From: a virus
Lineage: Duplodnaviria; Caudoviricetes
Strand: one strand, 5' to 3'
Virus record (IMG/VR): IMGVR_UViG_3300037297_000231
Location: 44-64,043 of that record
DNA: 64,000 bases
The position numbers were made by a program, and so were the translations under genes. The notes beneath the pieces are model-generated. The model was not told where the DNA came from, ran no database searches, and saw nothing but the letters and a program-made list of their open reading frames with translations. Positions 1,872-62,339 of the stretch are shown piece after piece. Each line of letters starts with the position of its first letter. Position 1 is the stretch's first letter.

Positions 1872-3399
1872 AGAACGGCTTAAGACAATATCCAATCTAG
1901 AACTACTTAAACATTATAAAATGTTATATTCAATAAGATACAATGAGGTTGATTCCTGTATTGATTTTATAAATCGTTTTTGCTTTACCTATGATCCTAG
2001 ACTCCCTGATAGCAAAGTAATACCCTTTGAATTATATCCAAAACAAATAGATTTTATTAAATGGTTATTTACCCGATATCAAAACCAGGAAGACGGATGC
2101 GTTGATAAATGCCGTGATGTAGGAGCTACCTGGTGTTTTATTGCATTTTCTATTTTTTTATTATTATTTAGGAATAATGTATCTATAGCTTTTTTTACAT
2201 ATAAGGCAAGTGAATGTCATACTATTGGGAAGATGGGAACTTTATTTGAAAAAGCTGTTTTTATAATAGATAATCTTCCAAATATGTATAAACAATCAGT
2301 CGAAACTAAATTAATGCTTATAACTAATTATGAAACTAAATCTGTAATCGTAGGGGCATCAGGAGATAACCCATTAAGAGGTGATAGGCAAACAATAATC
2401 TTTAAGGACGAATCGGCTTTTTATGAGCAAGCTGAATCAATAGAAGCTGCAATGTCAAAGTCTAGTGATTGTAAAATAGATATATCAACACATGCAGGAA
2501 CAGCGACATTATTTTATCAAAAAATTGTATCCGGAGAATTACCTATATTTACGTTTGATTGGTGGGAGAATCCTAGACATACTCAGGAATGGTTTGAGTC
2601 TGAACGGAAAAAGTATTATGCAAGTGGGCTTATTCATATTTTTAGAAGAGAGATAGAAAGAAATCCTTTGGCCAGTGTTGAGAATATATTGATACCTGCG
2701 GAATGGACGCATTCAGCAAAAGTTTGTAATGTGGGTATAACAGGTAAAAGGATTGCTAGCCTTGATGTCGCAGATGAAGGGACTGATACTAACGCTTTAT
2801 GTATTATGAATGGCAATACTTTATTGCATTTAGAAGAATGGTCTAGTCCAGATCCTAATGAAACGGCACGTAAGGCTTTCTATAGAGCAATAGAATTTGA
2901 TTGTGATGAATTCCGTTATGATAATATAGGCGTGGGGACCGGGATAAAAGCCGGATTAAATGTAATTTTAGATGAATTAAGGAAAGATGAACTAAATAAC
3001 AAAAAAGCTTTAAGTATAAGGATTATTGGCTGGGCTGCGTCTGGAAAAGTTATTAGGCCTGACGATTATGATTTTGATGAGAAAAGGCCAAATAAAGACT
3101 TTTTCGAAAACGCTAAGTCTCAAGCTTATTATAAAATAAGAGACGAATTTCTTCAAACATATCATTATATGAACAAAGAACAACATGATGCTACGAAATT
3201 AATAGATTTTAGTCAAATGATTGACCATCCACTATTTAATAAATTTATGAGTGAATTATCTCAGCCTTTACAAAAATTAACAGCAAGTGGAAAGATAATT
3301 ATTGATAAAAAAGCTAAAAGTAAATCTCCAAATATAGCTGAAGCTTATATGATAGGCAGGGCTGAGGTTAATCTTAATTTATCTATCTGGGATGTTTAA
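1852..3399 (+). CDS. Terminase large subunit
   Basis: PFELYPKQ adenine-binding motif, KCRDVGAT Walker A variant, FKDE Walker B, LDVADEG.D nuclease motif, C-terminal SPN.AEA. Confidence 0.92.
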   Translation: MMKITYKERLKTISNLELLKHYKMLYSIRYNEVDSCIDFINRFCFTYDPRLPDSKVIPFELYPKQIDFIKWLFTRYQNQEDGCVDKCRDVGATWCFIAFSIFLLLFRNNVSIAFFTYKASECHTIGKMGTLFEKAVFIIDNLPNMYKQSVETKLMLITNYETKSVIVGASGDNPLRGDRQTIIFKDESAFYEQAESIEAAMSKSSDCKIDISTHAGTATLFYQKIVSGELPIFTFDWWENPRHTQEWFESERKKYYASGLIHIFRREIERNPLASVENILIPAEWTHSAKVCNVGITGKRIASLDVADEGTDTNALCIMNGNTLLHLEEWSSPDPNETARKAFYRAIEFDCDEFRYDNIGVGTGIKAGLNVILDELRKDELNNKKALSIRIIGWAASGKVIRPDDYDFDEKRPNKDFFENAKSQAYYKIRDEFLQTYHYMNKEQHDATKLIDFSQMIDHPLFNKFMSELSQPLQKLTASGKIIIDKKAKSKSPNIAEAYMIGRAEVNLNLSIWDV

Positions 3400-9571: not shown

Positions 9572-9673
9572 GGGCTTTTAGTAATAATGGTCGAACGCTT
9601 TATAAAACATGAAGGGTGATTCATGATAAACCTGTTATATAAAGAGATGTGGGTTCGATTCCCACGGAGCCCG
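9572..9673 (+). ncRNA. tRNA-like RNA with expanded anticodon arm
   Basis: GGGCTTT/GGAGCCC acceptor, D-loop TGG, T-arm GTGGG-TTCGATT-CCCAC; stem CTTTATA/TATAAAG encloses about 33 nt instead of 7. Confidence 0.7.
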
Positions 9674-9691
9674 ATTTTAAGGAGAGGTAGA

Positions 9692-10108
9692 ATGGAAAGG
9701 GAGATTAAATTTAAATATTATTATAAACTCTGCCATCCCCATACAGGATGGGGAGATATTCATATTGCAATAATAACATTAGAAGATTTAGAAAAAGGTA
9801 AATATAAAGATATTATAGGAAAATTAGAAGAATCTTTTGTGGTTGAAATTATAGGTAAATGTCAATATACAGGATTAAAAGATGAAAATAAAAAAGAAGT
9901 ATTTGCAGGAGATATAATTGAATTTATAACTGAGGATGAAGGATATGAAGAAAATATAAAAAGATTTAATGGATGGTTTATAGATTATGATATTCATGAA
10001 AAATGCTTAGTATTGAGAGATAGAAAAGAAAATGATTTAATTCCTTTATCTCATTTTGACTATCATGCAAATTTTAATGTCATAGGCAATATATCTGAGA
10101 GTTTATAA
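9692..10108 (+). CDS. YopX family protein
   Basis: MEREIKF..., QYTGLKD.N.KEVF.GDII, VIGNI; real start at 9692 after a GGAGAGG RBS. Confidence 0.8.
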   Translation: MEREIKFKYYYKLCHPHTGWGDIHIAIITLEDLEKGKYKDIIGKLEESFVVEIIGKCQYTGLKDENKKEVFAGDIIEFITEDEGYEENIKRFNGWFIDYDIHEKCLVLRDRKENDLIPLSHFDYHANFNVIGNISESL

Positions 10109-11166: not shown

Positions 11167-12186
11167 ATGCAAATATATAAAATTACTAATTTAATTAATA
11201 ATAAAATATATATAGGTCAAGATGCTTATGATAATAAAAATTATTATGGTTCAGGAAGAATAATTAAACGTGCAATTAAGAAATATGGAAAACATAATTT
11301 TATAAAAGACATATTAAATCAATGTAATTCTAAACAAGAGATGAATGAATTAGAAATCTATTGGATCAAATATTTTAAAGATTGTGGGTATATACTTTAT
11401 AATTTAACAAAAGGCGGTGGAGGAAGTTTAGGATATAGACATTTAAATGAATCAAAACAAAAGATGAAAGGAAGAAAAGCATGGAACAAAGGTTTAACGA
11501 AAGATATAGATAATAGGGTAAAAAAAATAAGTTTATCTATGAAAGGTAAAATTTTTTCTGATAGCCATAAGAAAAAAATAAGCATGTCAAAAAAAGGTAG
11601 AAATTATGAAGAAAAATATGGAATTTATAGGGCTATAGAAATTAAAAATAAAATACGATTAAAGACAAAATTAACTTTTAATCAAAAAACAATAAAAGAA
11701 AAAAGAAGTAAAGATAAAAAAGGTAAAAGTTATGAAGAAATATATAAAATAGAAAATATAGAAAGAATGAAAAATATGGCAAGAAAAAGAATGTTAGGAG
11801 AAAATAATCCTGCTAAGAGACCTGAAGTAAGAGAAAAAATGAGTAAAATGCGTAAAGGCATACCAAATAAATATAAAGGTACAAATAAAGAAAATAATGA
11901 AATTTATAGGAGATTAAGTGATTCTAAGAAAGGTAAAAAATTTACAGAGGGACATAAAAGAAATTTAAGTATTGCTAAAAAAGGATTATATACTGAAGAT
12001 AAAAGTCATTCGGCAAAGACATTTATATTCTATTCACCTTGTGGAATAAGAAATGTTGTAAAAGGGATATATTATAAATTTTGTGAAGAAAACAATTTAT
12101 GTGGAAAAACGATAAGAGAACATTTAAATAAAAACAATCATAATTATAAAGGATGGGCTATTTATAGATATGAAAATAATAGATAA
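11167..12186 (+). CDS. Free-standing GIY-YIG homing endonuclease with NUMOD3 repeats
   Basis: IYKITNLINNKIYIGQ...YYGSG, E..WI, YNLTKGG, repeated HKKKIS.SKKG motifs. Confidence 0.88.
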   Translation: MQIYKITNLINNKIYIGQDAYDNKNYYGSGRIIKRAIKKYGKHNFIKDILNQCNSKQEMNELEIYWIKYFKDCGYILYNLTKGGGGSLGYRHLNESKQKMKGRKAWNKGLTKDIDNRVKKISLSMKGKIFSDSHKKKISMSKKGRNYEEKYGIYRAIEIKNKIRLKTKLTFNQKTIKEKRSKDKKGKSYEEIYKIENIERMKNMARKRMLGENNPAKRPEVREKMSKMRKGIPNKYKGTNKENNEIYRRLSDSKKGKKFTEGHKRNLSIAKKGLYTEDKSHSAKTFIFYSPCGIRNVVKGIYYKFCEENNLCGKTIREHLNKNNHNYKGWAIYRYENNR

Positions 12187-12877
12187 TATTTCTCTTATAA
12201 TTTTAAGTTGCAAACGATTTTCACTTTTTAAAAGGACGATAGAATCTCTTCAAAAAAACTGCCTCGACTTAGATTTAATTAGCCAAATAATCTTAGTTGA
12301 CGATAATAGCGAATTACATGATTTAATCTTAATGCAGGATTTAGCAAAAAAACTCGGTAAGCCTTTATTGTTGGTAAGCAAGCATCAAAATAAAGGACAC
12401 GCAATTTCAATGAATATTGCATGGGATCTGGTTAAGACTGAATATTGCCTATTATTAGAGGACGATTGGGAGTGCGTTAAGTCTGATAATTTCATTAAAA
12501 CTGCGTTTCAGATATTTAATAAGCATGATAATGTTGTCCAGGTCCAATACCACCGTAAAGCTGATATAACAGCAATAGGGCAAAAGACTTTAAAATTAGG
12601 CAATAAAAAATATATAAAATATGACTATAATGTCAAATCAGTTGATAGTCTAGGCAGACCAGCATTTCCAGGGTTCACTTTGAATCCTAGCTTAATCAAT
12701 GTCAAAAAGCTAAAAGAAAATAATTTGCGCTTTAGAGAGGATATATTCGGCTTTGAGTTTAATTATGCTTGTCAGGTTGCAGGAAAAGGACTTAAGATTG
12801 CTTATTTTACCGATAATTATTTTCAGCATATAGGCAAGAATAATTCGGCGTATAAGTTGAATGAAACTCAGAGGTAA
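12170..12877 (+). CDS. Glycosyltransferase family 2-like
   Basis: ILVDDNS, N.AW, LLEDDW (DxD), HIG motifs. Confidence 0.8.
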   Translation: MKIIDNISLIILSCKRFSLFKRTIESLQKNCLDLDLISQIILVDDNSELHDLILMQDLAKKLGKPLLLVSKHQNKGHAISMNIAWDLVKTEYCLLLEDDWECVKSDNFIKTAFQIFNKHDNVVQVQYHRKADITAIGQKTLKLGNKKYIKYDYNVKSVDSLGRPAFPGFTLNPSLINVKKLKENNLRFREDIFGFEFNYACQVAGKGLKIAYFTDNYFQHIGKNNSAYKLNETQR

Positions 12878-13020
12878 TATGTGTTTGCATGTTTGGAGTA
12901 AAAAGATTAACGAGATCAAATATTTTTCGAAAGATATTATAGGTATAGAAGAATCTAAGATATGTAAAAATTGTGGACGGCTTAAATATATTAAGTTTAA
13001 ATCAATACGGAGAAAAAAGA

Positions 13021-13656
13021 ATGTTCAATTTTAATCAATTATTTCCAGTTGTATATTTGATCAATCTCCCTGAACATGCTGAACGCCTTGAACATGCAAA
13101 AAAACAACTTGCTAAAATTGGGATATCCGATTATATTATATTTGAAGGCATTAAAGTAAATAACGGTCAAACATTACAAGATCGTGAGGCTGGATGTAAA
13201 TTATCACATTTGGCTATTATTGAACAATGCAAAGAGAACGGCATTGATAGAGTATGTATATTTGAAGATGATATAAATATAAAAGATACTTTTTTAGAAA
13301 AATTGGGAATGGTAAAAGATTTTATATTGAATGAAGATTGGCATTTATTTTATTTTGGTGGCAACTTAAATGTTAATTCAGGGCATCATTACGATATTTT
13401 TAACAAAGATATAATGCGTGTTTATAGATGCTATACTACACATGCTTATTGTGTTAATTCTAGCATTTATAATCAGATATTGCAGTTTAAGGAGGTTAAT
13501 ACTCAATATGATATATTATTGAGCTTTTTAATCCAGGAACAATATAAAAAGAGTTTTTGCATGAATCCTCGTCAAATAACACAGAGGACAGGCTTTTCTT
13601 ATATAATGCAAAAGAGCCTTGATTATTCTATAGTCTTAGAAGATAGAAAAATATAA
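13021..13656 (+). CDS. Glycosyltransferase family 25
   Basis: YLINL....ER, GC.LSH, IFEDD, THAY motifs; start at 13021 after GGAG. Confidence 0.85.
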   Translation: MFNFNQLFPVVYLINLPEHAERLEHAKKQLAKIGISDYIIFEGIKVNNGQTLQDREAGCKLSHLAIIEQCKENGIDRVCIFEDDINIKDTFLEKLGMVKDFILNEDWHLFYFGGNLNVNSGHHYDIFNKDIMRVYRCYTTHAYCVNSSIYNQILQFKEVNTQYDILLSFLIQEQYKKSFCMNPRQITQRTGFSYIMQKSLDYSIVLEDRKI

Positions 13657-13660
13657 TTTT

Positions 13661-13710
13661 GTCGACTTACTTTATATTAAATTATATTGTGTTAAATTAA
13701 ATTATTTTTT
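13661..13710 (+). repeat. 5-nt periodic tract A0 (NTT-NN units)
   Basis: gtc-ga ctt-ac ttt-at att-aa att-at att-gt gtt-aa att-aa att-at, then a T-run. Confidence 0.8.
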
Positions 13711-13723
13711 TAGGAGAAAAAAA

Positions 13724-14311
13724 ATGAAACAAGAGCAAAAAGAAGAAAAAATCGTGATTCCAACAATAAATATGGAATCATACATCATTACTATTGAAGG
13801 CGAATCTCCATTAATCACAGGTCGATTTTCTTCAGACTTATCAAACAATCCAAAAGATAATTCACCTGCCCAACAGATAAAAAATTCTATTCATTATTTA
13901 TCTGATGGGAGTTATGGGTATCCAGCAAGAGCAATACAAAAAGCAATCATAAATGCTTGTCGTATAAAACAGAAAGATGTAAAGACTTATAAAATGACAG
14001 AATTACGTGGTGTTTTTTCTGTTATTGCCGAAGATGAAACTGGATTATTGAAGCTAGATTGTAAAGATCATACTACTTTTGAAAGGATAGTATATAATAA
14101 AAATAATGCAATAAAAAGCCATTATGCTAAGTATGATAAATGGAAATTAACTTTTGAATTGATATTTAATCCATCCGTTAAATCATTGAAAGATTTTTTA
14201 TATTTATTGACTTTAGCAGGGCAATTTGTAGGGCTTGGAGTTTTAAGGCCTCAAGCGCAGGATTCAGGGGAATATGGAAGATTTAAAATAATTAAAGTTG
14301 AACATAAATAA
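13724..14311 (+). CDS. Stand-alone RAMP / Cas7(Csm3)-like RNA-binding protein
   Basis: N-terminal ITIEGESPL strand, YPARAIQKAI helix (equivalent of IPGSSLKGA), C-terminal Gly-rich loop GLGVLRP..SGEYGRF. Confidence 0.75.
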   Translation: MKQEQKEEKIVIPTINMESYIITIEGESPLITGRFSSDLSNNPKDNSPAQQIKNSIHYLSDGSYGYPARAIQKAIINACRIKQKDVKTYKMTELRGVFSVIAEDETGLLKLDCKDHTTFERIVYNKNNAIKSHYAKYDKWKLTFELIFNPSVKSLKDFLYLLTLAGQFVGLGVLRPQAQDSGEYGRFKIIKVEHK

Positions 14312-14321
14312 TTTGTTTTTT

Positions 14322-14381
14322 GTTCGTTTGATTTGGATTAATATGGATTACTTTTGATTGATTTACTTTAAATTAAATTTT
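14322..14381 (+). repeat. 5-nt periodic tract A1
   Basis: gtt-cg ttt-ga ttt-gg att-aa tat-gg att-ac ttt-tg att-ga ttt-ac ttt-aa att-aa att-tt. Confidence 0.8.
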
Positions 14382-14423
14382 TTATTGATATTTGAAAAAA
14401 ATGAGTTAAAATATAATATATAG

Positions 14424-14473
14424 GTTTTATTATATTACCTTTGATTAGGTTTCGTTTAATTGCATTAAATTAT
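14424..14473 (+). repeat. 5-nt periodic tract A2 (just downstream of a promoter-like sequence at 14392-14419)
   Basis: gtt-tt att-at att-ac ctt-tg att-ag gtt-tc gtt-ta att-gc att-aa att-at: 10/10 units have TT in register. Confidence 0.85.
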
Positions 14474-14538
14474 TTATAGGGGAGAATTGAAATAGGTAAT
14501 TATGGATTGTAATTATTCTTTGTATTGTATTTTTTTAT

Positions 14539-14613
14539 GTTTGATTAAGGTTAATTACGATTTAATCATTTAAATTAAATTGCCTTCGTTTTAGTTTTGT
14601 TGCATTAAATTTA
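14539..14613 (+). repeat. 5-nt periodic tract A3
   Basis: gtt-tg att-aa ggt-ta att-ac gat-tt aat-ca ttt-aa att-aa att-gc ctt-cg ttt-ta gtt-tt gtt-gc att-aa att-ta: third base is T in all 15 units. Confidence 0.8.
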
Positions 14614-14629
14614 TTTTTAAGGATTATTT

Positions 14630-15136
14630 ATGGAAAAAAAGATTATTTTTTATAGCAAGAAAAGTTTTTTGCCTAATACTTCATTACAAAAGATAGGGGA
14701 AGAAATATATAATCTGAAAGATAGAAGTATATCTAATATCTATGATACTGTTGCCAAAAATGAGAAATCAGAGCTTCATAAACATTTGACATGGGATAAT
14801 AAAATTGCGGGTAAAAACTGGCGTAAATATGAAATTAAAAAAATAGTTTCGACAATTGTATATAAAATTATAGAAATAGATAAAGACAAAAAAGAAGATA
14901 TACTTATTGAAGATCAAAGGGCTTTTGACACTATAGGAAAAGACGACAAGAAAAAAGAAGTTATATTCGTTGTAGAAGATATCAAAAAGAAAGACAAAAG
15001 AACTATATTATTTGAAAAACTTCAGGAGGAATTCGAAAGTATTCAAAATAGAATTAAAGAGTATAATAGAATCGTTGATTTTATTCTGGATTTAAATAAT
15101 AAATGGAATGATTTAAATAATAAATTAAATAAATAA
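14630..15136 (+). CDS. Uncharacterised phage protein partnered with the RAMP gene
   Basis: SELHKHLTWDNKIAGKNWR resembles the phage motif (S/P)LHxxFxWDDxxAxxxYR; embedded between periodic tracts. Confidence 0.55.
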   Translation: MEKKIIFYSKKSFLPNTSLQKIGEEIYNLKDRSISNIYDTVAKNEKSELHKHLTWDNKIAGKNWRKYEIKKIVSTIVYKIIEIDKDKKEDILIEDQRAFDTIGKDDKKKEVIFVVEDIKKKDKRTILFEKLQEEFESIQNRIKEYNRIVDFILDLNNKWNDLNNKLNK

Positions 15137-15189
15137 TCGTTTTTATTACATTAAGATCGTTTAAATTGAATTTTATTAAATTAAATTTT
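15135..15189 (+). repeat. 5-nt periodic tract A4
   Basis: aat-cg ttt-tt att-ac att-aa gat-cg ttt-aa att-ga att-tt att-aa att-aa att-tt. Confidence 0.8.
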
Positions 15190-15203
15190 TTTGGAGTTGT
15201 ATA

Positions 15204-16019
15204 ATGAATAAAGCAAATATAATAATTTTTAGTTTTAATAGGCCTTGTCAATTAGAATTGTTATTAAGATCCATGAAAATGCATTGGAATGATTTTGATA
15301 ACCAGGAGATTAAGGTTATTTATACTTATTCTAATGATAGTTTTGAAGCTGGATATAATAAGCTTAAAAATGAATGTAAGGGTAATATTGAGTTTGTCAA
15401 ACAAGTGACATTTAGACAGAATGTTATTAATTGCATAGATACAAGTAAAGAACTTGTTATATTTGGGACTGATGATGATGTTTTTATTCGTGATTTTGAT
15501 TTGCAATGTAAAGAGGTTGATTTCTTTAAGCAACGCCCTGAGATAATTACTTTGTCATTAAGGCTCGGTAAGAATATTTCTTATTGTTATACACAGAATA
15601 GATTTATATCCCGGCCGCTTTTAATCAAGGGTGCGGATTATAATTTGTGGAATTGGACTGAGGGAGAAGAAGGGGACTGGACTTATCCATTCAGTTTAGA
15701 TTTTAATTTATATGAGACGGACTTTATTTTGCCTTATATTAAGAAGTTTGAGTTTAGATCACCGAATACACTTGAGGGCTTTTTTGCTCGTATAATGCCT
15801 TATGCTAGATATTTAATGATGGGTTTTGATGAACCTAAAATTGTAAATTTGCCTATAAATCGGGTGCAAATGGATAATAAGAATAGGCACGGAAGAATAC
15901 CTGCGGAGTTTTTAAATAATAAGTATTTAGATGGCTATGTTATTGATTATAGTAAACTTGAAATATTCAACGGCAACTCTTGCCATATTGAGAGTAAAGT
16001 TGAGTTTATTGAGGGATAA
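15204..16019 (+). CDS. Glycosyltransferase-like (GT-A fold)
   Basis: IIFSFNRP.QL..LL.S, TDDD motif, YP.SLD, PNTLE. Confidence 0.7.
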   Translation: MNKANIIIFSFNRPCQLELLLRSMKMHWNDFDNQEIKVIYTYSNDSFEAGYNKLKNECKGNIEFVKQVTFRQNVINCIDTSKELVIFGTDDDVFIRDFDLQCKEVDFFKQRPEIITLSLRLGKNISYCYTQNRFISRPLLIKGADYNLWNWTEGEEGDWTYPFSLDFNLYETDFILPYIKKFEFRSPNTLEGFFARIMPYARYLMMGFDEPKIVNLPINRVQMDNKNRHGRIPAEFLNNKYLDGYVIDYSKLEIFNGNSCHIESKVEFIEG

Positions 16020-16356
16020 ACCATTGTTAATGGTTAAAAATATATTTTTTTTAGGAGATTAAATATGTATGAGTTAGAAAAAACTGATGAGAAAGAACGA
16101 ATAGAATATGAAATAGGGCGTGAGGTGCGTTTAATTGGTGAGCATTTAGAAAAATTGGATCATGCTATTAATTCTTTAAGAAAACGATGTGCTGATATTA
16201 TTGAAGAATATCCAACTGAAAAATTAGACTCCAAATTATCAGAAGGATGTGGAACTGTTTTAGGTGACAAATTAAAGAATTTTAACGGATCGTTAGAGTC
16301 TTGTATTAATAATTTGAATAACTTAAAAGAAAATATAAGGCTATAGGCAATTTAAG

Positions 16357-16962
16357 ATGTGCAATAAAGATACTAAAAAATGCGATATACAGAAAGGATT
16401 CCCATTAAATGAATGCTGCAAAAACAATCTTATGAAACTATTATCTGTTATAGATATCATGTTTAAAAAGCATAATATATTATATTGGATTGATTATGGT
16501 ACGTTGCTTGGGAGTGTAAGGCAAGGGCAAATAATACCCTATGACGATGATTGCGATATTGGTATACTAAGGCAGGATTTAGATAAACTATTATGCTTAA
16601 GCGATGAATTTCGTTTGATGGGATTCCATCTAGTAAGTTGGTTCTATCCTAATTTTTTAAGATTAGATTATAGCAGAATAAATGAACTTCATGTGGATAT
16701 CTTTGCATGGGATGTTCAAATAATGCCATTTAAAGAGATCTGGCAAGAGGATAGATGGCAATATAATACAGCTTGTTTATACCGGAAACAATATATTCAG
16801 GGCAAAGATGAAAATAAAGGAAAGCATTTTCCAGTTGAATATTTATTCCCTCTGAATAAATCTAAAATAGGCAATTTGTCTTTACCGTGTCCGCACAAAC
16901 CAGATCGATTTTGTGGGTTTAGATATGGGCATGATTGGAGAATTGAGAAAAAGGAAAATTAA
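16357..16962 (+). CDS. licD: LicD family phosphotransferase
   Basis: YWIDYGTLLGSVR...IIPYDDDCDIG, VDIF, YG.DW motifs. Confidence 0.85.
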   Translation: MCNKDTKKCDIQKGFPLNECCKNNLMKLLSVIDIMFKKHNILYWIDYGTLLGSVRQGQIIPYDDDCDIGILRQDLDKLLCLSDEFRLMGFHLVSWFYPNFLRLDYSRINELHVDIFAWDVQIMPFKEIWQEDRWQYNTACLYRKQYIQGKDENKGKHFPVEYLFPLNKSKIGNLSLPCPHKPDRFCGFRYGHDWRIEKKEN

Positions 16963-16964
16963 TA

Positions 16965-17357
16965 ATGAATAAGGAAAAAATTAATATAGGGTTTACAGTT
17001 GGCATTTGGGATTGTTTTCATGAAGCACATATTATTTTTTTAAAGAAATGCCATAAATATTGTGATTATTTAATAGTTGGTATCATGACAGATTATTGGT
17101 GTAAAGTCCAAAAAGGTAAAACTAGACCTGAAGATGGGTTACAAACCAGACATGCTAATTTACAAAATAGTAACCTTTGTGATAAGATCGTCATACTTGA
17201 TACTTTAGATATGACAGAATATTTGAAAATTGCTGATATATGGATTAAGGGAGTTGGGCAAAATAAAATGAAGCCAGAATTTTTTAAAAATACTGTTTTC
17301 ATACCTAGAACACCTGATATATCAACGACAAAAATTTTAGAGGAGAAAAAATGGTAA
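16965..17357 (+). CDS. Cytidylyltransferase (TagD/RfaE-like HxGH family)
   Basis: G.WD.FHEAH, LIVG, PRTPDISTT motifs. Confidence 0.8.
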   Translation: MNKEKINIGFTVGIWDCFHEAHIIFLKKCHKYCDYLIVGIMTDYWCKVQKGKTRPEDGLQTRHANLQNSNLCDKIVILDTLDMTEYLKIADIWIKGVGQNKMKPEFFKNTVFIPRTPDISTTKILEEKKW

Positions 17358-17724
17358 AATTTTTAAAAAAAATCATTAAAAAATTATTTTTTAAATATTT
17401 TGATATAAAAATAAATAACATTGAGGTTTATACTTTTTGTAAAGATGAAATTTTATCTAATAATTTTAATGAAAAATTTAATTCAAAATTCTGCACTATA
17501 TATAATATAGCATATTTTGTATTGGTTCAATATTGGTTTGATTCAATAACTATTGTTGTCAATAGGGATACATCTACTATTTTTTTAATACTAGAAGATA
17601 TAAATTTTGAATTAGAAAAAGAAATTATTGGATATTTAAAAGATAAATTACCGGCTAATGTATTAATTAAAATATCTGAAAATATAGTAGAAAATATTAT
17701 TGGCTATGAAATAAAAGAAAAATA

Positions 17725-18372
17725 ATGGATAATAGACAAAAATATATTAATATAAACCCAAAATATTTTGAATTATTATCATTAAGCTATTTTGATAAAT
17801 ATATGCATGATGCTTTAATATATAGGGATTTCATGGGATGTGAAGGCTTTAAAGAGGATTATTTGGCTTTACATGGAATAATTAGGGAAGTAAATCCTCA
17901 GTCATTTTGTGAGATTGGAACTCACTTAGGAGAGGGGACTAGAATTATTTGTAATGCTATGCAAGGTAAACAAGTATATTCACTTGATTTACCGGTCAGA
18001 TATGATGAAACTAAAGATGTCTATTTAAATTGGAATAGTGAAAAACCAGAAGGAAAAGTAGGTGAACGATGCGAATTTACTTATACTCAATTATTTGGAA
18101 ACTCAAAATATTTTGACTTTTCACCATATTACCCAATTGATGCCTGGTATATTGACGGTAGGCATAATTATGAGTTTTGTTATGCGGATTCTATAAACGC
18201 CTTAAAATCTAACCCAAAAGTCATTATATGGCATGATACATTGATGGATGGTGTTCAAAAAGCTATTTATCAGATAATAGAAGAAAACAAGGCTTTATAT
18301 GAGGCTTATTATATAAGAGGTACGAGAGTATCATTTATTTTAAGAAAGGAGAAAAATAATGCCAATAAATAG
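17725..18372 (+). CDS. Class I SAM-dependent methyltransferase (Methyltransf_24-like)
   Basis: EIGT..G.G, YIDG.H.Y...D, IIWHD motifs. Confidence 0.8.
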   Translation: MDNRQKYININPKYFELLSLSYFDKYMHDALIYRDFMGCEGFKEDYLALHGIIREVNPQSFCEIGTHLGEGTRIICNAMQGKQVYSLDLPVRYDETKDVYLNWNSEKPEGKVGERCEFTYTQLFGNSKYFDFSPYYPIDAWYIDGRHNYEFCYADSINALKSNPKVIIWHDTLMDGVQKAIYQIIEENKALYEAYYIRGTRVSFILRKEKNNANK

Positions 18373-18898
18373 TGAAATATTAAGTAAGTATAAAAATGAT
18401 GTGTTTGTGGAGACTGGAACACATATTGGGCGTGGTATAGATGCAGCTTTGAAAGCTGGTTTCAAGGAAATCCACTCTGTTGAATTATCAGCAAAACATT
18501 ATATTTTTTGTATGAAAAAGTACAAAGATAATAAAAATGTATTTCTTTATCATGGAGATTCAGGAAAATTGCTTAGTGTTATTTTAGGAAAAGTAAAACG
18601 TAGAAATAAAACTGTGTGGTTGGATTCACATTTTTCAGGAGGCGATACAGCTTGCGGAGAGAAATATTCACCGCTTATGGAAGAACTAAGTGTAATTAAA
18701 TATTTCTATGGTAAAAGGGATGTAATTTTAATTGATGATATTCGGGATTATAAGGTTAAATCAGAGCATTATGATTTTGACCTGGAAGATATTAAGGATA
18801 AACTTTTAGAGATTAATGCTGATTTTACTTTTAGCTATGAGGACTCATATCAGGGTGATACTTTTATGTTTCCAAAAGATATTTTAGTGGCTAAATAG
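18359..18898 (+). CDS. SAM-dependent methyltransferase-like protein
   Basis: FVETGT..G.G, SVEL, GDS, WLDSH, ILIDD.R motifs. Confidence 0.75.
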   Translation: MPINSEILSKYKNDVFVETGTHIGRGIDAALKAGFKEIHSVELSAKHYIFCMKKYKDNKNVFLYHGDSGKLLSVILGKVKRRNKTVWLDSHFSGGDTACGEKYSPLMEELSVIKYFYGKRDVILIDDIRDYKVKSEHYDFDLEDIKDKLLEINADFTFSYEDSYQGDTFMFPKDILVAK

Positions 18899-19286
18899 GA
18901 GTAAGCATGATTGATATTAAGAAAAAACCAAATAAAATATATATTGAAATATATAATTATAAAACCAAAAAAAAGATAGTCACATTAGCTTTTTCGAAAG
19001 AATCATTAAAATTTGCTAATCATATACATAAATATTTTAAACATATAATAAAAACTTCAATAGAATCAGGATGGATAAATAGATCAGATTGGACAAACGC
19101 AGAAATAAAATTAAGATTTCCTGGAATAAATAAAGTTGAAATTATATTGCCTTCGGTAATACATAATGTAAATATCAATATTAAACCCTCAAAATTGAGC
19201 ATACAAGCAAATAAAATATTTAGAAGAATATTTAAAAATAATATTAATTATGTAAAAGATATAAAAGTTATTCCAAAATATAAAAA

Positions 19287-20003
19287 ATGATACCAATACT
19301 TTATGCTATAAACTTTAAAATAGATTCTCTTCCTAATGCAATGAGACGCTTCAATTGCTCATTAAATTCTATTTTATTGCAAGCTGATAAGATATTTATT
19401 TTAAATGCATCGAAAGAAGATATTGATATTATTGATCATGATAAGATTGTTTATATTCATAAGCCTTATAATAAGTACTTTAATAAATCACTTTTAATGA
19501 ACTATATGGTGAAGCATTTTTTAAAGGATTATGACTATTTTTGTTTTTCAGATATAGACCTCGTTTATCCAAAGGATTATATTAAACGAATTACTTCACA
19601 TATACAGAATAAACCAGTTCGGGTGATTCCTCGCAATATAGCAATGCCTATGGAATATTACTCAGGTAATTATGATGATTTGTTAATCATTGCTGATAAG
19701 TTTAAACAGCATCCAACAGGTGAAGCTCATGGAATAGGTTTATTTCATACTCAGTCTGTTATTGATATAAAAGGATGGAATGAATATTATTTGGGGTATG
19801 CTGCGGAAGATAAAAGTATAAATTTGAGATTGGAAAAATATGGCAATAAGATTATATTTGATCGTTCAATAAATCATATTCATTTGTGGCATTATCCAAT
19901 AAATCGGGAATATCATGCACAAAATAAGTTTTTATGGAATCAAGAGCAAGAATTTATCAGGAAAGGGAAACTTATATTTAATGATAAGTGGGGTGAATAT
20001 TAA
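19287..20003 (+). CDS. Glycosyltransferase (GT2 / galactosyltransferase C-terminal-like)
   Basis: FNKS..MN, DID, GWNE.Y.GY..ED, HLWH motifs. Confidence 0.8.
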   Translation: MIPILYAINFKIDSLPNAMRRFNCSLNSILLQADKIFILNASKEDIDIIDHDKIVYIHKPYNKYFNKSLLMNYMVKHFLKDYDYFCFSDIDLVYPKDYIKRITSHIQNKPVRVIPRNIAMPMEYYSGNYDDLLIIADKFKQHPTGEAHGIGLFHTQSVIDIKGWNEYYLGYAAEDKSINLRLEKYGNKIIFDRSINHIHLWHYPINREYHAQNKFLWNQEQEFIRKGKLIFNDKWGEY

Positions 20004-20806
20004 TGGGCAAATTTTATATATGGAATGATATTTTTGATGGAAATAACACATTAAGACTTGATTATCCATTGAATGAAGATTCCATTGTTTTTGATGTAGG
20101 GGCGTATAAAGGTGAATTTATTGAAAAAATATATAGTAAATATAAATGTAATATTTATGCTTTTGAGCCTATTCCAGATTTTTTTAACTTATTATGTGAT
20201 AAGTTTGCAGAGAATAATAAAATCCATTTATATAATTTTGGATTACATAATAAAGAAGAGTTGACACCTATACAATTAAAAGATGATTCTTCATCAATCT
20301 TTCGAGTAGACTTAGAGAGTGCTTCCTATGTGGAAATGAAAAAATTAAGTGGATTCTTTAAAGAAAATGAGATTACAAAAATAGATCTGCTTAAACTTAA
20401 TGTGGAAGGGGCTGAATATTATATTTTAGACGATATAATTAAAAATAACTTACAGTTAGTAATTGATAATATCCAGGTTCAATTCCATCATATTGATAAA
20501 AAGTTTGATAAATATAAGGATAAATTCTGTAATGTTTTAAGTGAAACACATCAACTTACTTATAAGATAGATTGGATTTGGGAGAATTGGCAAATTAAGA
20601 CAATCCCATTTTACCATGATTTTGAGTTACTCAATAAACTGATAGATGATTATTTATGTTTAGAAAAAAAGCATGAAATACTTTCTCAGGATTTCAGAAA
20701 TTTTAGAGAAAAGCAGCATAATTTAAAACATGCAGTTGATACTTATATTTCAACTGAAGGCACAAATATATCAAATCTTAAGCACCAAATGGAGTTAAAT
20801 AAATGA
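20003..20806 (+). CDS. FkbM family methyltransferase
   Basis: FDVGAY.G, AFEP, IDLLKLNVEGAEY, QVQFH motifs. Confidence 0.88.
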   Translation: MGKFYIWNDIFDGNNTLRLDYPLNEDSIVFDVGAYKGEFIEKIYSKYKCNIYAFEPIPDFFNLLCDKFAENNKIHLYNFGLHNKEELTPIQLKDDSSSIFRVDLESASYVEMKKLSGFFKENEITKIDLLKLNVEGAEYYILDDIIKNNLQLVIDNIQVQFHHIDKKFDKYKDKFCNVLSETHQLTYKIDWIWENWQIKTIPFYHDFELLNKLIDDYLCLEKKHEILSQDFRNFREKQHNLKHAVDTYISTEGTNISNLKHQMELNK

Positions 20807-21492
20807 AATTATCAGATTTTGGATTTAATGTTTATTCTCAATTCGGGGAAGATGGCATAATCGCCAAGATATTTCAAATTATAAAAATAAGGCATAATGT
20901 ATGTATTGATCTTGGTTCATGGGATGGCGTTCATTATTCTAATGTTTGTAATTTATATCGTAATGGATGGAAAGCCATTCTGATAGAAGGCAATAAAAAA
21001 AAGTTTGACGAATTGGAACGTAATATTAGATGGTATGATTGTATTGCTATTAATGAATGGGTCAAGAATGCGGATATTATCAACAGATACACTAAAATTG
21101 ACCTTCTAAGCGTTGATATAGACGGAAATGATTATTTTATACTAAAGGACTTAAAATCACGCCCCAGAGTGCTTATTTGTGAATATAACCCTACAATTCC
21201 ACCCTTCATGAACATGATAGCCAAGAAAAATAGTAATTTTGGTTGCTCTGCTTTGGCATTAAAAACCATGGCTAAATCTAAAGGGTATACTTTAATCGCA
21301 ATGACTGAGAGTAATTGCATATTCGTATTAGATGAATTAGTTCATAAGTTTAATGATTTTGATATAGAATATGAGTCTATTTTTTGCTATAAGAATCTTT
21401 CTTATGTGATTACAGATTATTCAGGGAATTATATGTTTTCTAGAAGGCCAGTCTATGGATTTGAAAAACCTTTGAAAGTTAGATTTATTTAA
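20803..21492 (+). CDS. FkbM-like methyltransferase
   Basis: YSQFGEDGII, G.WDG..SN, DLLSVDIDGNDY, PRV..CEYN motifs. Confidence 0.8.
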   Translation: MKLSDFGFNVYSQFGEDGIIAKIFQIIKIRHNVCIDLGSWDGVHYSNVCNLYRNGWKAILIEGNKKKFDELERNIRWYDCIAINEWVKNADIINRYTKIDLLSVDIDGNDYFILKDLKSRPRVLICEYNPTIPPFMNMIAKKNSNFGCSALALKTMAKSKGYTLIAMTESNCIFVLDELVHKFNDFDIEYESIFCYKNLSYVITDYSGNYMFSRRPVYGFEKPLKVRFI

Positions 21493-59284: not shown

Positions 59285-59839
59285 ATGGAAGCATGGAAAG
59301 ATATTGATTTAACTAATTTTGGTGGTGAAGATTATACTGGATTATATGAATTAAGTAATTCTGGTAAAATTAGAAGCTTAGAAAGAATGCAATGGAATGA
59401 ATTAACAAAAAGAGTTATTGTTTTGAAAGAAAGAATATTAAAAAATAAATTATCACATGAATATCATAGAATTCAATTATGTAAGAATGGGGATATAAAA
59501 AACTATCAGGTTCATAGATTAGTAGGGTTTTTATTTGTGCCTAATCTAGAAAATAAACCTCAAATAAATCATAAAGATGGCGTTAAGTTAAATAATTGGG
59601 ATTGGAATCTTGAATGGTCTACGGGTAGTGAAAATCAAAAACATGCTTTTAAAACAGGGTTACGAAATAATAGAGGTGAAAATCATTCACAGCATAAATT
59701 AAAAGAAAAGGATATTTTAAAAATTAGGGAATTATATAAAACTGGTAAATATAGATATATAGATTTAGCAGATATATTTAAAATTAGTTGGGCTAATATC
59801 GCTTGTATTGTTACTAAGCGATCTTGGAAACATATTTAA
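59285..59839 (+). CDS. NUMOD4-HNH homing endonuclease
   Basis: E.WKDI...Y.GLYE.SN.G.IRS, VHRLV...F.PN.ENKPQINHKDG.K.NN...NLEW.T.SEN.KHA. Confidence 0.9.
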   Translation: MEAWKDIDLTNFGGEDYTGLYELSNSGKIRSLERMQWNELTKRVIVLKERILKNKLSHEYHRIQLCKNGDIKNYQVHRLVGFLFVPNLENKPQINHKDGVKLNNWDWNLEWSTGSENQKHAFKTGLRNNRGENHSQHKLKEKDILKIRELYKTGKYRYIDLADIFKISWANIACIVTKRSWKHI

Positions 59840-60927: not shown

Positions 60928-61299
60928 ATGAGAGAAATTAAATTTAGATGTTGGCATAAATCAACAAAAGATATGATATATCCTGATAGATTGAGAGAAT
61001 TAACAATGAATATGATGTCAGAAGATGACGAAGATATTTTAATGCAATACATTGATTTAAAAGATAAAAACGGCAAAGAAATATATGAAGGCGATATTAT
61101 AAAATATTATAATTCAATTGGAGAATATGGTATAGGAATAATTGAATCATTTTTTGATACTGTAAATTTACATTGCAGGTGGATTGAACAAAAAACAGAA
61201 AATCCCAGTCTTTTTACTTCTATTGATTATTTAGGCTGTTCTGAAGAAATTGAATTAATCGGCAATATATATGAAAATTCAGAATTATTAAGGAGTTAA
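60928..61299 (+). CDS. YopX family protein
   Basis: MREIKFR.W, LMQY..LKDKNGKEIYEGDI, IGNIYEN motifs. Confidence 0.9.
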   Translation: MREIKFRCWHKSTKDMIYPDRLRELTMNMMSEDDEDILMQYIDLKDKNGKEIYEGDIIKYYNSIGEYGIGIIESFFDTVNLHCRWIEQKTENPSLFTSIDYLGCSEEIELIGNIYENSELLRS

Positions 61300-62255: not shown

Positions 62256-62339
62256 ATTTCTTGGTATATTTTTGGACTTATTTATTTTACTATTAAAATT
62301 ATTAAATTATTTAAAAAATTAAAGTTAAAGGAGAATAAA
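62256..62339 (+). repeat. 84-bp exact direct repeat, copy 2
   Basis: Identical to 1-84. Confidence 0.95.

Follow-up and report, generated by a model that had tools for sequence, protein, structure and literature searches.

Which system is encoded by a small RAMP-like gene whose intergenic surroundings repeat every five bases on the gene's own strand? The question is raised by positions 13654-15192 of a 64,000-nucleotide (nt) stretch of DNA, here called the window, which makes up nearly the entire 64,043-base IMG/VR virus record IMGVR_UViG_3300037297_000231 (positions 44 to 64,043) and is rated by CheckV as complete (tailed phage). A sequence-only reading of this cassette had described a stand-alone RAMP/Cas7-like gene with five periodic non-coding tracts and a resemblance to VIPR (Viral Interference Programmable Repeat) systems. 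The analysis presented here indicates that the cassette is very likely a VIPR system of this complete 64-kb phage, in which UU-based guides would be carried by a minimal Cas7-like RAMP protein.

VIPR systems are RNA-guided silencers of DNA, related to CRISPR, whose first description dates from 2026 (bioRxiv 10.64898/2026.04.26.720920). As described there, a locus combines vipr and a vipr-accessory (vap) gene with vrRNAs that lie between the genes, each made of 9-16 YNNGG units and closed by a structured tail that does not vary. Each unit is covered by one protomer, which holds GGY and leaves NN to pair with double-stranded DNA, every third target base being skipped, and the system silences competing satellites and prophages by acting in trans on DNA (10.64898/2026.04.26.720920). 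Alternative repeats have been described as NNNGG, YNNNG and NNNNG (10.64898/2026.04.26.720920) and as GAC/NN, CAC/NN, WGT/NN and TGH/NN in 21 clusters (10.64898/2026.10.21.760802). A T-T constant is not named in the consulted text of these two reports or in that of 10.64898/2026.04.26.720927 and 10.64898/2026.10.15.759431, a statement that covers text and not figures such as the motif-listing Fig. S17 of 10.64898/2026.04.26.720920 and Fig. S10A of 10.64898/2026.10.21.760802.

The Vipr homologue and its partner gene

Two open reading frames (ORFs), each preceded by a Shine-Dalgarno sequence, make up the coding part of the cassette:

13724-14311, plus strand: vipr, 195 amino acids (aa), a RAMP protein in which an RRM core is joined by a beta-hairpin thumb (approximately residues 117-137) and a glycine-rich loop (G-loop, G166-G185)
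14630-15136, plus strand: ORF2, 168 aa, between tracts

The first ORF has no Pfam match and falls in the unnamed PHROGs family phrog_4652 (E 5.8e-12). An exhaustive HMMER search returned 797 relatives at E<=1e-3, only 2 of them at E<=1e-30, and a profile built from 80 of these relatives matched the PDB entry 36pp_D, 'SUSP1 Vipr protein', with E 1.1e-17 over residues 2-189 of 202. Foldseek searches with the AlphaFold2 model (pLDDT 94.4, pTM 0.88) placed type VII Cas7 and type III Csm3/Cmr4 at the top (probability 1.00, E ~1e-6, TM ~0.55), and the G-loop glycines are invariant. Judged by profile and predicted structure, the ORF is a Vipr homologue with a RAMP fold, and because of this homology and the Cas7/Csm3 fold match we assign the locus to the VIPR systems (bioRxiv 10.64898/2026.04.26.720920). 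The RAMP/Cas7-like gene of the sequence-only reading is therefore borne out, as is the resemblance to VIPR, given that VIPR is in print (10.64898/2026.04.26.720920), the ORF is a Vipr homologue and the 5-nt repeats are co-oriented with it.

Csm3, Cmr4 and type VII Cas7 have the RRM core, the G-loop and the thumb in common with the modelled protein, as well as an arrangement in which each subunit takes up an RNA stretch of set length. That length would be 5 nt here, whereas it is 6 in the Cas7 backbones of class 1 CRISPR systems. In further contrast to class 1 CRISPR-Cas, the phage shows no CRISPR array, no other cas gene (Cas5, large subunit, Cas6) and no second RRM: Tandem Repeats Finder returned no CRISPR-like period array in the phage genome, Pfam scans of the 74 window ORFs named no Cas family or second RRM and PADLOC gave 0 matches for both cassette ORFs, in agreement with what had first been noted from the letters.

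ORF2 is a candidate vap gene by position only. It matches no Pfam family and no GenBank phage relative (tblastn, E<=0.01); the matches obtained were phrog_15946 (E 1.2e-6), one relative with 97% identity and, in the atlas, viral hypothetical clusters only. Its AlphaFold2 model, built from a single sequence and of low confidence (pLDDT 63), gave no Foldseek match at E<=0.001.

Pentamer tracts with a TT constant

Tandem pentanucleotide tracts flank vipr in intergenic DNA on the vipr strand, as follows:

13654-13711, plus strand: tract A0, NNNTT units running on from the GT25 stop codon; 6 of the variable units are clear (13664-13693), 2 terminal AAATT units follow (13694-13703), then ATTTTTTT
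13712-13716, plus strand: Shine-Dalgarno AGGAG of vipr
14310-14383, plus strand: tract A1, 12 variable units closed by two AAATT units at 14370-14379, then TTTT
14385-14419, plus strand: two overlapping sigma-70-like sites, TTGATA-16-TAAAAT (10/12) and TTGAAA-16-TAATAT (9/12), consensus match only
14422-14471, plus strand: tract A2, 9 variable units, 1 terminal AAATT, ATTTATAGGGGAG after it
14497-14581, plus strand: tract A3a, irregular, 8 in-phase units (14517-14556), two one-base slips, CATTT AAATT AAATT at 14567-14581
14582-14618, plus strand: tract A3b, short, abutting A3a, 5 variable units, AAATT to 14611, then TATTTTT
14619-14623, plus strand: Shine-Dalgarno-like AAGGA after A3b
15138-15192, plus strand: tract A4, 8 variable units closed by two AAATT units at 15178-15187, then TTTTT
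15193-15196, plus strand: Shine-Dalgarno GGAG of the gene after A4

A search over the 64,000 positions for places where TT fills 8 or more of 10 consecutive slots spaced five bases apart returned 27 positions, all of them in five clusters within the intergenic DNA of the cassette (13652-13721, 14308-14387, 14415-14484, 14555-14629 and 15136-15200). First-order Markov simulations of the window gave zero such positions in 29 of 30 cases and 3 positions in the remaining one. The AA control, equivalent to TT on the minus strand, produced a single cluster inside a coding region (11681-11735), and no GG period-5 run is present here, the same test being positive in Gordonia phage controls. Lag-5 identity was also compared with 500 dinucleotide-preserving shuffles per intergenic segment and exceeded them in all three segments, the observed value being reached by 0/500 shuffles for 13657-13723, 1/500 for 14312-14629 and 11/500 for 15137-15203. 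The 5-nt periodicity proposed from the letters is thus confirmed.

The in-register unit is NNN+TT. Considering 47 units, with terminal units dropped, T is kept at unit position 4 in 45/47 and at position 5 in 47/47, values that are partly due to the construction of the unit caller, and positions 1, 2 and 3 carry 1.90, 1.99 and 1.76 bits. Because those three positions are this variable, the constant in the window is TT and not the near-constant triplet suggested originally. The base preceding TT (A20 T15 G9 C3 in these units) is near genome composition, and the base composition of positions 1-3, taken from the window alone, is compatible with more than one choice of read bases.

Six tract 3' ends are counted (13703, 14379, 14471, 14581, 14611 and 15187), one more than in the five-tract description. 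The common core postulated for them, ATTAAATT, is present at 6/6, while the T-rich run said to follow it was found at only 5/6. The end motif, also written AAAUUAAAUU, is linear and consists of 5-10 nt of AAATT(AAATT) plus the T-run. Genome-wide, AAATTAAATT is not over-represented (8 copies vs 6.2 expected); the 4 copies outside the cassette come without a periodic tract, 4-5 of the 14 upstream units ending in TT vs 9-13 of 14 inside it. No space for a tail exists between A3a and A3b, which abut directly. A promoter-like sequence had been pointed out at 14392-14419 and the site does exist (9/12 matches); nevertheless, sigma-70-like sites are no commoner than in shuffles (15 found vs 16.9 +/- 3.7 expected) and it carries no evidential weight.

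Other observations concern the layout of the tracts. In the window (14582-14611) and in L186 (2528-2557), one of the relatives described below, and so in both lineages, a longer tract is directly abutted by a short one with 5 units and an AAATT, just ahead of the next gene's Shine-Dalgarno. In the window region 14472-14573, GGGGAG follows A2 and a 23-codon ORF (14502-14573) overlaps A3a.

Relatives and the guanine-contact residues

The nearest GenBank phage relatives of the window Vipr, those of the Gordonia phages Ecliptus and Pipp (24-26% identity), have plain GG-period pentamer tracts just downstream of the vipr homologue on the same strand. In Ecliptus (L001) the tract (3110-3340) lies in an unannotated gap; in Pipp (L002) it lies at ~3105-3374 under the annotated coding sequence gp43, 'hypothetical protein', which therefore may be a mis-called vrRNA array.

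TT-type tracts, for their part, are found beside a Vipr homologue and on its strand in at least five contigs: the window, L072 (the same as L124), L125, L126 and L186. The four besides the window belong to uncultured phages and were located by a motif scan combined with hmmsearch (L072), by protein search (L125, L126) and by a second motif scan (L186). The two scans of viral_contigs returned at least 120 and at least 118 stretches and, among the matches listed, one Vipr homologue locus each (L072 and L186); the other stretches, with no Vipr homologue by hmmsearch among those matches, were rejected as chance matches in AT-rich viral DNA. All four loci carry NNNTT tracts both upstream and downstream of vipr, TT is their sole dinucleotide with long period-5 runs despite a GC content of 34-43%, and their tracts end in AAATT AAATT or AAATC AAATT. 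L125 and L126 have Vipr proteins 81% identical and completely different variable tract bases, and L124, L125, L126 and L186 all keep tracts of this kind with different variable bases, which is the check on homologous loci that the sequence-only reading had called for. Since BLASTP aligns only 33 residues between the Vipr proteins of the window and L072, which lie far apart in the family tree, sequence comparison places the four loci in a lineage distant from that of the window.

This second lineage has features of its own. A small gene upstream of vipr, of 86-93 aa (L125 224-484, L126 2163-2426, L186 2057-2338), is common to its loci (L125-L126 E 1e-21; L125-L186 E 2e-5; L124 holds the 3' end only) and is a candidate accessory gene that the window does not have; in L125 and L126 a tract precedes this gene itself. 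Mini-ORFs in L124 (121-300, 17 codons) and L125 (483-570, 1 codon) are preceded by a second copy of a module that comprises a tract end, a Shine-Dalgarno and an ATG. These modules and mini-ORFs, and with them the GGGGAG and the 23-codon ORF of the window, may have arisen as by-products when tracts were duplicated, or may belong to the RNA 3' end.

Further queries widened the set little. Neither the window protein nor its four-member alignment brought up relatives in viral_contigs, metagenome_contigs or genome_contigs, a query with P0005 was negative in viral_contigs, and the L124-L126 alignment gave no prophage in genome_contigs and nothing new in viral_contigs. P0004 retrieved only a distant pair, L127 and L128, with D-Y in the G-loop and no dinucleotide period-5 tract within 2 kb. 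Upstream of the vipr homologue of L127, ~1.1 kb from the gene, G recurs at period 5 in 10/10 slots (~504-553), and this run may be an NNNNG-type tract.

In SUSP1 Vipr, H17 and D177 bond G1, G2 is kept in place by R138 together with W178, and Y3 is stacked on by R179 (10.64898/2026.04.26.720927). The equivalents of H17, R138, D177, W178 and R179, in this order, were taken from two independent alignments (MAFFT and hmmalign, the L125 equivalent of H17 being a gap in hmmalign):

Window: G33, Y134, V173, L174, R175
L124: N, R, S, R, R
L125 and L126: N, R, A, R, R
L186: N, W, D, G, R
Ecliptus and Pipp: H, R, E, W, R

H17, R138, D177 and W178 are all replaced in the window and R175, the equivalent of R179, alone is retained. 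The contact His and Trp are missing from every TT-type protein, and L186 is the only one of them to keep the acidic residue. Its locus (GC 34%) is also alone among the TT loci in having G before TT in 23/43 units and a purine in 36/43, while in L125 the base before TT is A in 32/54 units. The pattern fits a mapping of x-U-U onto G1-G2-Y3, in which the read pair would be the two bases after UU, as in the register of the sequence-only reading. Its basis is the five TT loci, which represent two lineages, along with both Gordonia controls and the residues published for SUSP1.

Compared with the type II VIPR of Escherichia phage SUSP1, the window has a similarly minimal phage locus, with vipr and one small partner gene, pentamer tracts upstream and downstream that are intergenic and on the gene strand (6-14 units per clear tract here vs the published 9-16), and a homologous protein (profile E 1.1e-17) with the Arg equivalent to R179 kept. 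It differs in that the constant is TT instead of GGY, a 40-60-nt pseudoknot tail gives way to AAATT(AAATT) plus a T-run, H17, R138, D177 and W178 become G, Y, V and L, and the partner gene has no GenBank phage relative (tblastn E<=0.01). VIPR loci with non-canonical repeats also have a five-base step, a Vipr-like fold beside the array and a constant that departs from GGY; however, none of the motifs named in the text consulted, figures apart, is T-T or free of both G and C. This is a genuine VIPR-family locus, and its grammar of a UU constant, a short linear end, no structured tail and replaced guanine contacts is unnamed in the published text examined, figures aside.

Competing explanations, genomic setting and implications

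If the locus works as its published relatives do, RNAs transcribed from the six plus-strand tracts would serve as guides. One Vipr protomer would sit on each five-base unit, by analogy with the solved SUSP1 complex, holding the constant part and exposing the variable bases, which would pair discontinuously with the double-stranded DNA of a competing mobile element and so lead to its silencing. The constant part would be U-U, probably x-U-U with a relaxed first base, instead of G-G-Y, and the guide would end in a short linear AAAUU(AAAUU)+U-run in place of the 40-60-nt pseudoknot. Transcription, ribonucleoprotein formation, the choice of the two (or three) bases that pair, DNA targeting, silencing and a role for ORF2 are what we infer.

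Several points weigh against this interpretation. The window protein alone fails to reach Vipr in PDB (the best phmmer match is noise, E 0.5), and Vipr homology leans on the family profile. The register, with NN after TT, leans on the relatives in a similar manner, and within the window that base preceding TT shows no constraint beyond genome composition. The tract comparison covers loci outside the window's own clade, to which the closest protein relatives, P0002, P0003 and P0004, belong. Transcription of the tracts and their binding by Vipr are presumed. ORF2 has no recognizable DNA-binding fold in Pfam or in Foldseek on its low-confidence model. A target search confined to 0.96 Mb of local DNA, the phage's own genome among it and public collections left aside, was negative: under eight register/skip rules, gapped matches did not surpass those obtained after the order of the units had been shuffled. 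Neither strand of the tracts folds beyond shuffles (z-scores -1.19 to +1.29) and no Rfam family matches either strand, and therefore the structured tail of published type II vrRNAs is absent.

Among the rival explanations, the one that survives best treats the tracts as cis leaders, operators and not guides, with Vipr coating the 5' untranslated region of its own and neighboring mRNAs and controlling their translation. Most tracts do end a few bases before a Shine-Dalgarno and start codon (A0 before vipr, A3b before ORF2, A4 before the next gene), most tract ends in L124-L126 and L186 are placed likewise, and the module duplicated before the mini-ORFs of L124 (17 codons) and L125 (1 codon) would suit such leaders. 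However, no gene follows A1, A2 or A3a, variable bases that are wholly different between close relatives are expected of guides and not of operators, and the homologue is described in its report as working in trans on DNA (10.64898/2026.04.26.720920), so that we hold cis control to be improbable.

A decayed VIPR locus, non-working, whose tracts are relics of a GGY/NN array eroded by AT mutation pressure, could be suspected from the genome GC of 29%, the phase slips in A3a and the loss of the guanine-contacting residues. Such erosion sits poorly with the retention of TT (45/47 units at position 4 and 47/47 at position 5, partly by the caller's construction), with the same TT format in phages of 34-43% GC, with a Vipr model of pLDDT 94 and invariant G-loop glycines and with tracts kept in strain variants, and we consider it very improbable. 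We consider it just as improbable that the tracts act as DNA unrelated to RNA guidance (iteron-like binding sites, promoter or UP elements, bent DNA), an idea invited by AT-rich intergenic DNA with promoter-like matches and opposed by the period of 5, not 10-11 (the Evo-PIN preprint, in the portion consulted, ascribes period-10 A/T runs to curvature), by the strand fixed relative to vipr in 5/5 loci, by the association with a RAMP RNA-binding protein and by the hypervariable bases between TT pairs.

The cassette is not an assembly artefact. Contigs X2-X4, from three other DNA runs, carry the intergenic tracts with hardly any change, their coverage of A0 and A4 being only partial; one change was seen in the tracts, 14317 T>C, a variation too small for comparing variable and constant positions. 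Record 12 has 3 differing letters in 204 bases over the tracts vs 16 in 434 for a vipr-coding piece.

All 73 ORFs of at least 110 aa in the window are on the plus strand of the phage genome (GC 29%), and Pfam matches include the small terminase, portal, major capsid, tail and baseplate proteins, a DnaB-like helicase and a single-stranded DNA-binding protein. A sugar-modifying gene block surrounds the cassette (GT2, GT25, LicD, cytidylyltransferase and methyltransferases by Pfam). Extending over 12170-21492, between the portal region and the capsid gene, it is a long block of the sugar/teichoic-acid modification type, with GT2, GT25, LicD, cytidylyltransferase and three methyltransferase-like ORFs, and the VIPR cassette is inserted inside it. 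Two glycosyltransferase genes had been named as flanking the cassette; the upstream one is GT25 (Pfam, E 4.8e-15), whereas the downstream ORF (15204-16019) has no Pfam family. Elsewhere in the window there are an HNH/NUMOD4 homing-endonuclease-like ORF (59285-59839), two YopX-domain ORFs (9623-10108 and 60928-61299) and an exact 84-base direct repeat (1-84 and 62256-62339, the second copy 1.7 kb before the window end), which is not a simple terminal overlap since the match stops after 84 bases.

Going further than a UU-based VIPR system, one may speculate, with the odds clearly against it, that the TT loci form a distinct VIPR class in which two uridines are gripped per step, no structured tail is needed and three bases per protomer (NNN) are read, possibly codon by codon. 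If true, a 3+2 code would replace the 2+3 code in print, in which one target base is skipped, and G-free guides could be written for AT-rich targets.

The guide grammar of VIPR has so far been defined around guanines held by four named residues. A G-free grammar with those residues replaced, in at least two very distant Vipr lineages that share the AAAUUAAAUY end, suggests that the held motif is an evolvable protein-RNA code and not a fixed one. The natural G-loop pairs (acidic-Trp with GG; Val-Leu, Ala/Ser-Arg and Asp-Gly with UU) could be used to decipher and re-engineer this code, and the TT loci could serve to ask whether the structured tail is dispensable. AT-rich phages, in turn, could be searched for VIPR arrays overlooked by G-based screens.

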